Shown: piece after piece, positions 2,114 through 64,000 of the stretch
Position numbering within the stretch: position 1 is the first letter of the stretch
Layout of the letters: each line of letters starts with the position of its first letter
Assembly (NCBI GenBank): GCA_965242965.1
Contig: OZ251518.1
Location: 3,680,001 to 3,744,000, forward strand
Direction: 5' to 3'
Origin: Candidatus Poribacteria bacterium
GTDB lineage: Bacteria > Poribacteria > WGA-4E > WGA-3G
Length of the DNA: 64,000 bases
The notes under the pieces: model-generated
The model's database searches: none
The model's input: the letters and a program-made list of their open reading frames with translations, nothing else
What the model was told of the DNA's origin: nothing
Translations under genes and position numbers: made by a program

Positions 2114-5100
2114 CTATTCCCGCTGTTTCACCTCACCGAACGTGGTCAGCATCCGATTTGACGCAGACACGGAACCGCGCAACAGACGCGTCGCTAACGT
2201 CGCCGGCTTACCATCAGACGCGACTTCTTCGATCTGATAGTAATACTCAACCCCAGGCTTCGCAGACGTATCCGTGAACGTGTAGGTTTGACGTTCACCG
2301 GTAGTGCCGGCACCGGCGATGAGCGCAGGATTCAAAAGCGTGAAACCGCTATCGCGTTTCAAACTGCGGCGCAGGTTGAAACCCGCGTTATCGACTTCCG
2401 ATTCGGTTGTCCATGTCAAGACGACAGCACCGGTTTCACTGCGCGTCATCGAGAAACTCGATAACTCCACCGGCAACGCGCCGCCGCGACGATGCCCCGG
2501 TGTGCCGATGTCATCCGCATCACCCCAGTGGAGCGCATCACTGCTAGAAGCGACTTTCTTGACACGCGCCGCCAAGACCCAACTCGACCTCTTTTGCCCC
2601 GGTTCCGCCGCCGAGGTGCCCTCGGTGTAACGCCGAATGACAGAACTCCGCGAACCTTCCTCGCTACTCAACGGTAATGCCCAGGCCGGTGCATCGTCCG
2701 AATGCCTGTTGCTGTCCCTATTCCCGACTTCGTCGACGAGATGCCCATTTCTATCGGTGAGTTTCAGGTAGAACCCCTCCATACTCAAGAAGGTATCCTG
2801 CGCACGCTTGATACGCAGATTCTTCTCGTGTAATGCAAGCAGGTCGTAAACTCTGTCAGTCGGCAGATACGAGTCTGACGACGCACGCGCCGGGCCCGCG
2901 ACAATTAAGAGCGTCTGATTCGGTTGAATTATTTTTTCCTTCAACGTCAACGTCACAACCGGTCTGCCGACTAAGTCCTCAGAATCGACATTCTGGATTT
3001 CCAGTTTCCAGCGGTTCAGGTTGAGTGCTTCCGTTTTCGAGGCATTATACAGCTCAATCCACTGCGGCAGTTTACCGTCCGCTGAATCCACCATGAGTTC
3101 ACTGAAGGTGACACTGCCCTTCGGCGTGGCAGCCACCGGTTTCACGGCATCGTTAGGATAACCGGGTGTGCCGGCTGTCGCCGGTGAGGTTTCTGTTACC
3201 CTATCATAGCCGACCCCGGTGTAGGCGGCCTGCATCCAGGCATCTTTGTGGTAGCCGACGCTGTCCGCCTTCGCGCGCCGCCATACCTTGCCTCCTGTAA
3301 AAGCCGCCTCGGTGTCCTCACGGGGATGTGCTGTCGCTTTCAAGGGCCAGATATCTGTCTGGAACGCGTCTCCTTTGTCTGCGATAAAGGCATCCGTATC
3401 GGGTCCGCCGCCGCCAGCGACATCAATCACGTTCTCCCCTTTGCCCAGTTTCCCCGTCGCATTGCGGAGAATCAAGAGGAACTGGCCATCATCGGGCAGC
3501 GTCAAATCAGGCGCGACGAAATAGTGATGCACTGCACCTGTCTTGCCGGGGTTCGCGATGTCAATCCCCCCTGCAAGCCGTGTTTTCTCCGGCGGCCGCC
3601 GCGTGATGAGCAAAATGCCATTCGGCGGGATGCGAAACGCCGCATCCGATGGAAATCTCACGAGTGGTTTGTCTACTTTCTCTCCATCGGTGACGATGCT
3701 GATGCCCCAGTTTTTCAACGGCACCGCCTCCGCCGTGACGTTCCGGAGTTCCAGCCAATCGTTGGCACCCGAAGCACCGTTGCCGAGTTCGTTGAAAATC
3801 AACGGCGTGCGCGGCATCTGTGTCGATTTCACGGGTTCCACTGTCTCTGGCGGCAGAAATACCACAGGCGCGCCCAGCACAGGCACCTCCTGTGTCAACG
3901 GCGCAACCGGCTCCTGCGGCTGACCGGGCGCGGGCTGCGTCGTTTCCCCCGGAAACGCCACGATGCCGCTAGGACCTCTGTCAGGCAGGGCATCGGTACC
4001 AGCAGGTTCGCCTGTCACTATCGCACTCACGCCATTCGTGATGGGGGCAGTCTCCGGCACGACGAGACGCGGCTCCCAATGGACCACGTTCGCAACGTCA
4101 TCCGACTGCACTTCATAGGCAAACGTGACAACGGTGGAATTCGCATCCCGCGCCGACTGCCAATAGGCGCGCCGCTGATTCGCCACCGTGCGCTCGCCTA
4201 AATAGAGCACGATATACGGCCGATTTGTAATATCCACATTCGCAGGGATATCTACATTGTCATCGTCAAATGTCAACTCAAGGGAGAGTTCACTACCGAC
4301 GATATATCCTGTCGCCGGGGGCGGCACCACGGTGACATTGGTTATTACCGGCGGCGTATTGTAAATCACCACCAACGGCGAGGCAGCACCGCCATAGGTA
4401 TCGCCTGCTGCAGTGGCAACACTGCCACTTTTCACCTGGAACGTGTAAGTGCCTTCCGCTGACACGGTGACAGGCACCGTATAACGCGCATCCGCCGATT
4501 CAGCACGCGTCAATTCACCGAACGTCGCTGTCCCCGCGCCACTGACGTTGATGTCTGAGACGCTAAACGCCCCATCTCCAACGGCGGCAAGGGGCTTCGA
4601 GAAATCGAACGTCACTGTCCAACTCGGTTCACTTGTCACGCGTCTTCCTTCTGTCAACGCAACCGAACTCTCAAGCACCAGCTCGACAGACATATCGTCG
4701 ACAGCGGTAACGGTAATCGCGAGACGCTGCGTCTTGATTAAGCGCCGGTCACCTGTCCCACTCGTCGCCGTAATGAAGACAATATAGGTGTTGTTGCCCG
4801 CCGCATCCGCCGCATCTTCCGGATCAGACGACATGTGCGCAACATCTGTCGGATTGCCATAATCTGGCGATACGCGAAACCGCAAGACACCGCTGCTCGC
4901 ATCAAACGTGAAGGCACCGCTATCTGTCCCGCTCAGCGTATACCCCATAATCTCATCGGCGGGATCGCCGTCCATCGCAACGACAGTGACGACAGGCGTG
5001 TCCGCCGGGGTATTCTCTGCCACAGTGACAGCAGCACTACTGCTGAAAACCGGCGGGTCGTTATCCTGCGGCACCGCCGTAACGGCATCCGACCAGGGCC

Positions 5101-60662: not shown

Positions 60663-61322
60663 TGAGGGTGTTTCATATATCAATGCCTTCCCGGTAGGAG
60701 AGCCCTCCTGGTCTTGATGTTCCCGTAGCGCGGGGGCCTGTCCCCCGCGTTGTCCAGCGTCAAGCGGTGGCGTTTTAGGTCCTTTAGGACCTTAATGTCT
60801 ATAGAAAAACGTGTCGGCCCATTTTCAAGGTCCTTTAGGTCCTTAATAAAAAACACGCGGCCCTGTCAAAACCTATTAAGGACCTAAAGGACCTTAGCAT
60901 TCTTCGCGGGTGCGCGTGCTATAGACATTAAGGTCCTACGGACCTAAGAGACGTTTTTTCATCGTAGCGCGGACGATGGCGAGGGACAGGCCCTCGCCCT
61001 ACGGTGAAAGGGAGGGCTTTCCTCTTACCGTAGCGCGGGGGCCTGTCCCCCGCGAGCGTTGGATTGCGCGAGCGATGGCGAGGGACAGGCCCTCGCCCTA
61101 CGATGAAGGGGGGCTTTCTGCCGCCGCTGCCCCGGGGGTGCCGCCCTATTGCATCGAGACCAGGAGGTCTCTCCTACGGGAACATCGCTTGCATCGAGAT
61201 CTGGATGGCGCGCCGACAGGAAAAAATTGAGACCGGGAGGGCTCTCCTATCCAAGAGGGCGCGGGAGTCGCCCGCTCCCCAAAGGGGAATAAATACCGAA
61301 ACGGATTTATGAAACACCCTCA
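60663..61322. mobile_element. MITE-like unit with TGAGGGTGTTTCATA terminal inverted repeats carrying REP cargo
   Basis: TIRs at 60663 and 61307-61322; subterminal ATAAATACCGAAACGGA shared with the 38346-38646 element. Confidence 0.55.
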
Positions 61323-61446
61323 TCTTACGTAGTGCGAGGGCCTGTCCCTCGCTCTGTTCACCGATAACGCTAACCCATTCCGTTGCGTTCGTGACGTAGT
61401 GCGAGGGCCTGTCCCTCGCCTTTAAATAAAAATGAGGGAAACGCTG

Positions 61447-62079
61447 ATGGCATTTAGTGATTTCAAAACCGCGGCTGAAGTCCAAGAGAAATTCGGGATT
61501 GCTTCCGTTGAAGAAAACTTCATAGAGAGTGAAAGGGAAGAACCGCCGGCGCATTTCCTGCGAGACTTTGAGTTTGCGCAGCAGCATATTGATGTTCTGG
61601 CATCGGAGTCGGCGCGGTGTCATGCGCTCATCTATCCGATTTTATGGGAGTGCTATAAGGCGTACGCCGAGGACTACGCGCTCTGGATTGGCAAATCCAT
61701 CACCTACAATGAGACATTGACAGGCACGCCGGATTACTTCGTCTCCACAAAGTCGCCGTTAGGTAAAAACGTCGTTGGAAGTCCCTTAATCATGATGGTT
61801 GCGGCGAAGCGGAACGATTTTGACCAGGGATGGGGACAATGTCTTGCGGAGATGGTGGCCGCGCAGAAAATCAATGGCGATGTGGTTTGCCCGGTGTATG
61901 GCATTGTTAGCGATGGGCAATCGTGGGAATTTGGTCGGCTTGTCGGTGAGACTTTCATCTGGAGACGTAGCCGTATTAACACGGATGATTTGCCGGGAGT
62001 CTTTGGGGCAGTTAAGGCGGTTTTCAGGCACGCGAAGCAGCATACTGGGCCTTGCAACTTAAACGAGCGTGTTTCCTAA
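61447..62079 (+). CDS. Hypothetical protein, restriction-endonuclease-like fold (HsdR_N-like)
   Basis: G.PDY, AK..DF..GWGQCLAEMVAAQ, YGIVSDG..W.F motifs. Confidence 0.6.
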   Translation: MAFSDFKTAAEVQEKFGIASVEENFIESEREEPPAHFLRDFEFAQQHIDVLASESARCHALIYPILWECYKAYAEDYALWIGKSITYNETLTGTPDYFVSTKSPLGKNVVGSPLIMMVAAKRNDFDQGWGQCLAEMVAAQKINGDVVCPVYGIVSDGQSWEFGRLVGETFIWRRSRINTDDLPGVFGAVKAVFRHAKQHTGPCNLNERVS

Positions 62080-62592
62080 ATCGCTCAACGTCGCGGTGAC
62101 AGTCTCGATGCGAGCGGTGTCCCCGTAGGAGAGCCCTCCCGGTCTCGATGCACATTCTGTAGTTCGGGCTCGCCTGCTCCCGACCGGGTCAGATCAGGCA
62201 GCGAGGGCCTGTCCCTCGCCCTCCGTGAAGGGGCGGCATTTTTTCACCGTAGCGCGGGGGCCCTCGGATGCCACACGCGCATCCGAGCGGGTTTCCCTCG
62301 CGAACGTTCGGGGTGCCGAGACATGGCGAGGGACAGGCCCTCGCCCTACGGTGAGGGGGGGCGTTTTGTGAAGAAGATGTCCCGTTACCGTAGTGCGGGG
62401 CCCCTCGGATGCCATCCGCGCATGCGAGCGGGTTTCCCTCGCAATCGTTCGGGGTGCCGAGACATGGCGAGGGACAGGCCCTCGCCCTACGGTAATCGAG
62501 ACCAGGAGGTCTCTCCTACCAGAGCTAATCGAGACTGGGAGGTCTCTCCTACCGGGAAGACATCGAGATATGAAACACCCTCAATAAAAAAC

Positions 62593-62621
62593 TTGACAAA
62601 TAGTCAAAAAATAGATAACAT
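62593..62621 (+). promoter_or_regulatory. Putative sigma70 promoter
   Basis: TTGACA-17nt-TAACAT. Confidence 0.5.
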
Positions 62622-62673
62622 AATGCATAAACGTGGAATCTTGCTAAAAATGTTTTAAATGGAGGTAGGTATC

Positions 62674-63456
62674 ATGAAATCGCGTCGTATATCTTTGGCA
62701 TTGACGCTCTCGCTAGTGGCGCACGTGTGCATCGCGGTAGCCGTGGCGTATGTTGCGCTCACTGCCCAAAATCAGACACCGAGAGATACCATTGATGTCA
62801 GTTTTTTCATCCTCACGCCGCCGAAGGCGCAACCACGGGATTTGATAACGCCCGAGCTGCTCGTCGCGCCGGCACCGAATCCGGATTGGCAAGTCGTCCA
62901 GCAAACTGAGCCGACGACACGCCGTGCGGCTATTGCGAGACAGACGACAACGCCGATGAACACCGCACTGCCCGCTGCAGCCAGACCGGATGCACCGAAG
63001 CGGGGACAGGTGAACGTTTCTAGCACGCCTTCCGTTCGCACGGATATTGCGCCGCCGCTCACAACGGCGGCAGACCTGGCGATAGAATCGGAATCGCCGC
63101 TCGCCGCAGGTTTGCGTAGCGGGAATGCTCTCACCGCAGGGCTCAGTAACGGCGATGGCGATGGCGATGGTGAAAATGCTGGCACTGGACGCGGTGCCTT
63201 CGGCTCCGCAGGGGCAATGACTCAAGAACGCGGGAGAGGTTATGCCGGCCTAGACACCCTCGTCGGTGGTGCAGGCGTTGCGAATATGAACGCCGCTCTG
63301 GCAGACGTTACGGAGAACATTGTGCTTGGCAACAATGTGCCTCCCCTCCCGAAAGGCTCACCGGGTGCTATCATCCAAGGCCGCGGCAAGGAGATACTGG
63401 GTAGGCTCAACCTTGTCCGCTTGGATGATCCGTTGCATCCGAACCTTGATATATGA
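62674..63456 (+). CDS. TonB-like membrane-anchored Pro/Gly-rich protein; N-terminal part of a probable readthrough fusion
   Basis: GGAGGT SD; SLVAH TM anchor; ends in TGA, after which the same frame stays open. Confidence 0.7.
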   Translation: MKSRRISLALTLSLVAHVCIAVAVAYVALTAQNQTPRDTIDVSFFILTPPKAQPRDLITPELLVAPAPNPDWQVVQQTEPTTRRAAIARQTTTPMNTALPAAARPDAPKRGQVNVSSTPSVRTDIAPPLTTAADLAIESESPLAAGLRSGNALTAGLSNGDGDGDGENAGTGRGAFGSAGAMTQERGRGYAGLDTLVGGAGVANMNAALADVTENIVLGNNVPPLPKGSPGAIIQGRGKEILGRLNLVRLDDPLHPNLDI

Positions 63457-64000
63457 GGCAGCGGCATCGGACATCTCCGATTTGGGGCAGGTCTGCCCTA
63501 TTTAGTCAAGGCGTTGAACACGCAAACTGGTGTTCTCACTCAACTTGTTGACGCAGTTCAAATTACCGATGCGGCGTTCTTTGAATCGCCGATTATCTTC
63601 ATGGAGCCCGTCTCTAGTTCGGTCCTTCAGAGCAACACGCTTGGGCTCAGCGATGCTATCTGGGATACGCAGAGTTCGCGCGCTACGAAAGGCTACACTG
63701 ACCGGGAGGCGCAGCGCATCCGTGAATACGTTATCAACCGTGGTGGGTTTATCTATATGCCGACACACGGCAATACCGAGGAGGCGATGCGTCCGGCGCG
63801 GCGCGTCTTACGGCAAATTCTGCCGGAATATCACCTCTCCGTTATTCCCCGAGACCACGCGCTCTACAAGAGTTTTTATGAGTTGAACGGGCCGCTCCGT
63901 TTTCCTGTGCGGAAGATCGGACGCACCATTCTCCATCATGGGCCGTATAGCCAATTGCAAGGCGTTTTCATTGATGGACGACTAGCGGTTCTCGTGGATA
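63457..64000 (+). CDS. DUF4159-like domain in frame after the TGA (runs off the window)
   Basis: Manual translation: ESPIIFM...RIREYVINRGGFIY...LRQILPE...IPRDHALYKSFYEL...LQGVFIDGRLAVL. Confidence 0.65.

Follow-up and report, generated by a model that had tools for sequence, protein, structure and literature searches.

A probable selenoprotein family of the DUF4159 type in Poribacteria, with tandem hairpins downstream of its UGA codon

Gene layout and reading frame

The window, by which we mean the whole stretch of 64,000 nucleotides analysed here, corresponds to positions 3680001-3744000 (forward) of contig C1 of a Poribacteria genome that we call G000. Close to its 3' end, a gene starting at ATG 62674 runs into an in-frame TGA and stays open beyond it, in the same frame, up to the end of the window at 64000; read further in the genome, it closes with a terminal TGA at window-equivalent 64237-64239, past the window end, and the gene (62674-64239) thereby comprises 521 sense codons, counting the UGA at codon 261 (Table 1). 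The initial annotation had reported this TGA, the open frame that follows it and two hairpins just downstream, and all of these were found again at the same positions. The ATG at 62674, and not the one at 62659, fits the starts of the homologs (MKS...), and a Shine-Dalgarno sequence precedes it. Promoter-consensus matches in the region scanned number two, versus 1.7 expected, and the promoter-like element listed in Table 1 is to be read accordingly. Public gene calls split the gene into two ORFs: some products end one residue before the UGA, for example P0040 (262 aa), and others start 3' of it, for example P0028 (245 aa), annotated as 'DUF4159 domain-containing protein'. TGA also serves as an ordinary stop codon in this genome, as it terminates the Sec gene itself.

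Table 1. Features of the DUF4159 gene and its immediate surroundings (window coordinates).
Feature	Position	Strand	Remarks
Promoter-like TTGACA-17-TAACAT	62593..62621	+	~50 nt 5' of the start codon; consensus match only
Shine-Dalgarno GGAGG	62661..62665	+	8 nt before ATG 62674; read directly
Codons 1-260	62674..63453	+	Short cytoplasmic N-terminus (predicted), membrane helix, Pro/Ala-rich linker, conserved segment
UGA, probably read as Sec, residue 261	63454..63456	+	TGA at this column in orthologs; Cys in paralogs
Hairpin 1, AUCGGA-CAUC-UCCGAU	63466..63481	+	Starts 9 nt 3' of the UGA
Hairpin 2, proposed SECIS / SelB-binding element	63483..63500	+	7-bp stem; GGUC loop at 63490-63493
Codons 262 onwards	63457..64000 (gene to 64239)	+	Sec-bearing insertion loop and DUF4159 domain

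Just 5' of the gene lies a 215-residue ORF (61432-62079, plus strand) for which Pfam gave nothing at E<=0.01. On both sides of the gene there are copies of a short interspersed repeat (window 60900-62590, and 3456-3734 of the extracted locus L001); in translation the repeat reads ...ARDRPSPYG..., ...GTGPRPTV... or ...IETRRSLL..., and it recurs in many ORF translations on both strands.

Conservation of the UGA column

The read-through product, used as the query of a protein search, had 22 matches, 20 of which (529-745 aa) span 77-99% of it; most of these full-length homologs cover 97-99%, and two cover 80% and 77%. In an alignment of 14 sequences, all 13 close database homologs carry Cys at the column of the UGA, in the context DI-C-G[NS]G[IV]G, and the single distant homolog has a Trp placed there. 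The wider alignment shows that this Trp is part of the canonical D-WW-DP motif, and the family-wide alignment shows that the UGA lies inside an insertion of about 10 residues specific to this subfamily, so that the canonical DUF4159 Trp residues do not align with the TGA. Decoding of the TGA as Trp, one of the alternatives initially envisaged, is thus at odds with the family alignment.

A six-frame search of 41 genomes yielded 17 loci with exactly one TGA apiece, and DUF4159 paralogs of 33-36% identity that have no in-frame TGA. Across 176 Poribacteria genomes, an ortholog was detected in 78 at E<=1e-80, giving 102 match rows: 85 with exactly one TGA (hereafter Sec forms), 15 without, and two fragments that do not extend as far as the column. 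The TGA occupies the same column in all 85 TGA-bearing orthologous loci (84 assigned by motif, plus the divergent locus L102), which come from 75 genomes and 8 genera and are 48-100% identical to the window protein. The 15 paralogs without a stop all encode Cys there, as TGT in 13 and as TGC in two. In a FastTree tree of 99 proteins and six outgroups, built without L102 and the duplicates L045 and L046, these 15 Cys forms are nested in a clade together with 26 Sec forms, and the nearest outgroup (P0027) also has Cys at the UGA column. Full-length homologs span the UGA, so that related sequence flanks it on either side and the frame around it is conserved as coding, as is expected of a selenoprotein gene. 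Homolog alignment, a check already proposed in the initial annotation, has hence returned Cys in the homologs and a conserved TGA in the orthologs.

These patterns bear directly on two other ways of reading the locus. A Cys codon that had mutated, or been misread in the assembly, to TGA would leave a broken gene; TGT or TGC becomes TGA by a single third-position change, and Cys forms do exist in the same phylum. Such an accident is nevertheless hard to reconcile with 85 loci, spread over 75 genomes of 8 genera and as little as 48% identical, that all have the TGA in one and the same column, and purifying selection on the protein persists 3' of the TGA, where residues are conserved while codons vary. 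We regard a pseudogene or an assembly error as having a practically negligible probability. The locus might also consist of two genes, a 260-residue membrane protein ending at the TGA and an independently started DUF4159 protein, as the public gene predictions divide it, and an in-frame TTG at 63514 is indeed the first in-frame start after the TGA. Against this, codons +1 to +19 are conserved at the protein level, with synonymous variation at +3, +9, +15 and +17, and no start is conserved, codon +20 (the TTG at 63514 here) being CTG in 68 of 84 orthologs, in agreement with the earlier observation that the second half lacks an obvious start of its own. The Cys homologs, moreover, are single uninterrupted proteins, and the DUF4159 fold starts before the TGA, as strands 32-48 of the structural model precede the Sec (model residue 62). 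Separate initiation is accordingly a very improbable account of the locus. Nonsense mutation, Trp read-through and separate initiation had all been listed at the outset as alternatives to a selenoprotein, and all three run counter to the conservation.

Hairpins downstream of the UGA

Hairpin 2, TGGGGCAGGTCTGCCCTA (63483-63500), folds on its own at -10.4 kcal/mol into GGGGCA-GGUC-UGCCC, with a stem of 6-7 bp and a GGUC loop located 33 nt after the UGA. The bSECIS model, as quoted in a recent inventory (PMC13188914), allows loops of 3-9 nt with G in their first two positions and stems of 4-16 bp, at a spacing of 16-37 nt from the UGA and with an MFE <= -7.5 kcal/mol; hairpin 2 falls within every one of these limits as they are quoted there, the spacing of 33 nt being near the upper one. 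The decamer GCAGGTCTGC occurs once in the window versus 0.15 times expected, and also in the SECIS of E. coli K-12 fdhF, which bears out the identity noticed in the initial annotation. The locus thus resembles fdhF in having an in-frame UGA followed by a hairpin whose apical GCA-GGUC-UGC is identical letter for letter. Unlike in fdhF, a second conserved hairpin lies in between, and the loop is farther from the UGA, as had also been remarked: 33 nt here versus 18 nt in fdhF and 17 nt in the SECIS of the genome's own selD. The tandem hairpins, with a SelB-type loop at such a distance, offer a natural test of the distance limit of bacterial SECIS elements.

Within the 72 nt counted from the UGA, none of the 84 aligned Sec forms departs from the others at columns 31-42 and 44-46. 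We separated constraint on the RNA from constraint on the protein in these 84 sequences by considering the columns occupied to >=95% by one amino acid with four- or six-fold degeneracy (n=103). Only five of these 103 columns use a single codon, namely +8 (CGA), +10 (GGG), +11 (GCA), +12 (GGT) and +13 (CTG), and the remaining ones have a median major-codon share of 0.54, the next highest value being 0.86. The five invariant codons correspond to the 3' arm of hairpin 1 together with the whole of hairpin 2. In hairpin 1, codon +8 is CGA in 84/84 sequences, and codons +4 and +7 end in C in 83/84 each. This indicates that both hairpins, hairpin 1 included, are under selection at the RNA level. The Cys forms (n=15) vary at the hairpin codons (CTG 8, TTG 6, CTA 1; GCA 12, GTC 2, GCG 1). 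They retain most of the hairpin, so that recent shared ancestry could account for some of the conservation at the nucleotide level.

When pairs were counted for hairpin 1 across 66 distinct sequences, 97.5% of cells were paired. A covariation test of a three-helix structure in the Sec forms gave no compensatory changes and pair counts not above those of shuffles, because both hairpins never vary among these forms; the case for an RNA structure is consequently made by synonymous-site invariance only. An outer stem joining columns 6-10 with 59-63, paired in only 85%, was unsupported and was discarded. When 63300-63700 was compared with Rfam (E<=10), no SECIS family was matched, and the two matches obtained were to unrelated families at chance level (E about 4). 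The bacterial SECIS models of Rfam are specific to a few clades, and the missing match thus weighs little.

Selenocysteine machinery and proposed recoding

The genome of G000 encodes the full set of genes for Sec incorporation, which the initial annotation had named as a further point to verify: selA, selB and selD score 577, 331 and 358 bits, respectively, each above its cut-off, and a tRNA-Sec (selC) with anticodon tca adjoins selB on the same strand (C1:179169-181207, outside the window). The selD gene (C1:58854-59813, also outside the window) is itself interrupted in frame by a TGA (C1:58884) within the motif KCAG-U-ASK, and is there provided with a hairpin GCUCC-GGG-GGAGC whose loop begins 17 nt after the UGA. 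Since selD carries a Sec codon of its own, Sec decoding is in use in this genome. A selA match is present in 163 of the 176 Poribacteria genomes, and the co-occurrence of selA and the ortholog is therefore not discriminating; the four ortholog-bearing genomes without a selA match have a completeness of 81-90%. In its combination of Cys homologs at the column with selA, selB, selC and selD in the genome, the locus resembles bacterial selenoprotein genes with a SECIS inside the ORF.

We also screened G000 for other selenoprotein genes, in the form of a TGA followed by a hairpin with a GGT loop. Most of the 63 candidates were noise, and selD, whose loop is GGG, escaped the screen. The two look-alike loci at C1:2955427 and C1:646303, and one near C1:229377, were set aside, as their translations are unconvincing as proteins.

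Following the established bacterial pathway, SelB carrying Sec-tRNA(Sec) would bind the loop of hairpin 2 as the ribosome reaches the UGA, and would deliver Sec there in place of termination. The spacing suggests that hairpin 1 may act as a spacer which, when folded, would shorten the way from the UGA to hairpin 2. The unpaired nucleotides left between the UGA and the stem of hairpin 2 would then number about 10, against 11 nt in fdhF and 12 nt in the genome's own selD. Such a folded spacer would explain the constraint on hairpin 1.

The inserted residue cannot be read from the sequence alone, and downstream RNA structures can stimulate stop-codon read-through in some systems, so that a programmed read-through with a standard amino acid (Trp, Cys or Arg), stimulated by the hairpins, has to be considered as well. 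Yet the GGUC loop of the hairpin is of the SelB type, and its apical decamer recurs in the fdhF SECIS; the full Sec machinery is encoded and already serves the Sec codon of selD, and Cys at the homologous position is the classic Sec/Cys pairing. We therefore give insertion of a standard amino acid only a slim chance. On comparative grounds, the in-frame TGA is almost certainly a genuine Sec codon, and we estimate at about 90% the probability that 62674-64239 is one gene whose codon 261, the UGA, is decoded as Sec, the product being a protein of 521 residues that crosses the membrane once. The candidate selenoprotein proposed in the initial annotation has in this way gained a TGA at the same column in 85/85 TGA-bearing loci, Cys homologs, a hairpin that fits the bSECIS model and invariant synonymous sites.

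The protein and its DUF4159 domain

The predicted protein has a membrane helix at about residues 5-28, followed by a Pro/Ala-rich linker and a conserved segment, GRGxxIxGRLNLVRxxDPLHP, and its N-terminal half matches no Pfam family. The C-terminal half is a DUF4159 domain (PF13709; 67.1 to 70.6 bits versus a cut-off of 25.9, over profile positions 65-201 of 202), as had been suspected from the sequence at the start. The label 'TonB-like', given to the product at the same time, was not upheld: the NCBIfam TonB model scores 19.5 bits versus a cut-off of 315, there is no TonB_C Pfam match, and the weak score covers residues 3-133 only, a stretch taken up by the membrane helix and Pro-rich linker. 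The Sec protein family is not represented by a model in NCBIfam, and a search of the ESM Atlas returned DUF4159 clusters only. We place the N-terminus in the cytoplasm and the linker and DUF4159 domain, by inference, outside the cytoplasmic membrane, because some paralogs have an ECF sigma factor N-terminal of the membrane helix.

Residues 200-521 were modelled with AlphaFold (pLDDT 82.5, pTM 0.83); the overall fold is confident, while the residues just after the Sec (63-69 of the model) have a pLDDT <50. The only clear structural relative is the uncharacterised protein Hoch_4089 (PDB 4i66; Foldseek E=6.6e-9, TM 0.64 on target; profile E=9.2e-17). Class I glutamine-amidotransferase-like proteins appear only as weak fold matches (Foldseek E>0.01), which suggests that the DUF4159 domain may adopt such a fold, and the Sec does not lie within a G-x-C-x-G nucleophile elbow. 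It belongs instead to a loop of about 10 residues, PLHPxxDI-U-GSGIGxxRFG, found only in this subfamily. In comparison with canonical DUF4159 domains, the D-WW-DP segment is replaced by this Sec-bearing insertion, and the canonical DDCG segment reads THGN in the Sec family (consensus lines compared by eye).

In the 99 Sec and Cys forms, no column other than 261 holds Cys in five or more sequences, and there is no second conserved Cys that could form a classical redox pair; five histidines (His255, 365, 395, 448 and 490) are invariant. The position occupied by Sec or Cys gives a first handle on DUF4159 function, because it marks a likely reactive site. With low confidence, we propose that the Sec might be a redox- or metal-reactive selenol in an extracytoplasmic domain with a sensing or catalytic role.

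Comparison with known selenoproteins

The reasoning applied here, a Sec/Cys pair combined with TGA-bearing homologs and a bSECIS, is that of published surveys of selenoproteins, and the kind of gene is in itself well known. The family, in turn, is absent from the published lists with which we compared it. A 2026 inventory comprises 119 prokaryotic selenoprotein families and subfamilies (Table 1 in PMC13188914), and DUF4159 or PF13709 was not found in the part of it compared, the DUF families listed there being others. The BSepDB supplement file (PMC13326102) does not, in the portion compared, contain DUF4159, PF13709 or Poribacteria, and the Sec DUF4159 family is not among the new families named in the passages compared of the deep-Sep paper. 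A literature search for DUF4159 and PF13709 found either term only in a Pfam database paper. The initial remark that DUF4159 is not a familiar selenoprotein family is thus in line with the lists compared.

Most families in the surveyed parts of these compilations have a thioredoxin fold or UxxC/CxxU motifs (PMC13188914; PMC13326102), in contrast to which the DUF4159 proteins have a lone Sec and no UxxC/CxxU pair. The resemblance to fdhF does not extend to the protein either, as the Sec protein shows no relationship to formate dehydrogenase and lacks both molybdopterin and Fe-S motifs. A Sec DUF4159 protein would add a family to the list of bacterial selenoproteins, with sponge-symbiont Poribacteria as hosts, and would correct a systematic annotation error, the gene being split in the public calls of dozens of Poribacteria genomes.

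Sigma factor fusions and gene neighbourhoods

Some paralogs of the window protein consist of Sigma70_r2 and r4 domains, then a membrane helix, then the same extracytoplasmic domain, and the long database homologs likewise carry Sigma70_r2 and r4 domains. Thirteen of the 15 Cys forms are open frames of 727-767 aa; one of them was confirmed to carry Sigma70_r2 and r4_2, and their length suggests the same fusion in the others. Only one of the 14 long forms (727-767 aa) interpreted as sigma fusions carries the Sec codon, TGA, namely a 739-residue ECF sigma fusion (Sigma70_r2, r4_2) in another genome (G069:C50; L184 460-2679). The sequence flanking this codon resembles that of the unfused Sec forms, and recombination between paralogs may have taken place.

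The fusions would point to a role in envelope signalling. The window protein itself, unlike the known ECF sigma/anti-sigma sensor systems, has neither sigma70 region 2/4 domains (Pfam) nor a recognisable anti-sigma domain, and no sigma gene lies beside it. One could imagine Sec261 as the redox- or metal-sensing residue of an extracytoplasmic DUF4159 sensor that signals to ECF sigma factors, together with a composite SECIS in which the folded spacer, hairpin 1, would place a distant fdhF-type SelB-binding loop at a working distance. We consider this combined scenario speculative and unlikely as a whole; if true, it would make the protein the first selenoprotein in bacterial transmembrane signalling. 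The Sec site is in any case unusual, being a lone residue in an apparently extracytoplasmic domain that occurs in fusions with ECF sigma factors as well.

In genera g1, g4 and g5, genes for a two-domain rhodanese, PTPS and GTP cyclohydrolase I are found 3' of the Sec gene; the rhodanese is present there in 5/5 scanned loci of these genera and absent from the single g15 locus scanned. In genus g11, the gene 3' of each Sec form encodes a lipoprotein with CarboxypepD_reg and PD40 repeats, about 560 aa long. Neither the rhodanese type nor the g11 lipoprotein type of neighbourhood provides a functional clue.

In G000, the rhodanese gene, with PTPS and GTP cyclohydrolase I after it, lies at L001 3862 onwards (window-equivalent 64961 onwards), and a perfect promoter-like TTGACA-17-TATAAT lies ahead of it at L001 3229-3257 (window-equivalent 64328-64356). 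One cluster of genus g11 (L180/L181; G038:C1:4140000-4176000) has a sigma-fused Cys form adjoining a Sec form, a DUF4159 paralog of 31% identity, and a second Sec form that lies about 20 kb off in inverted orientation.
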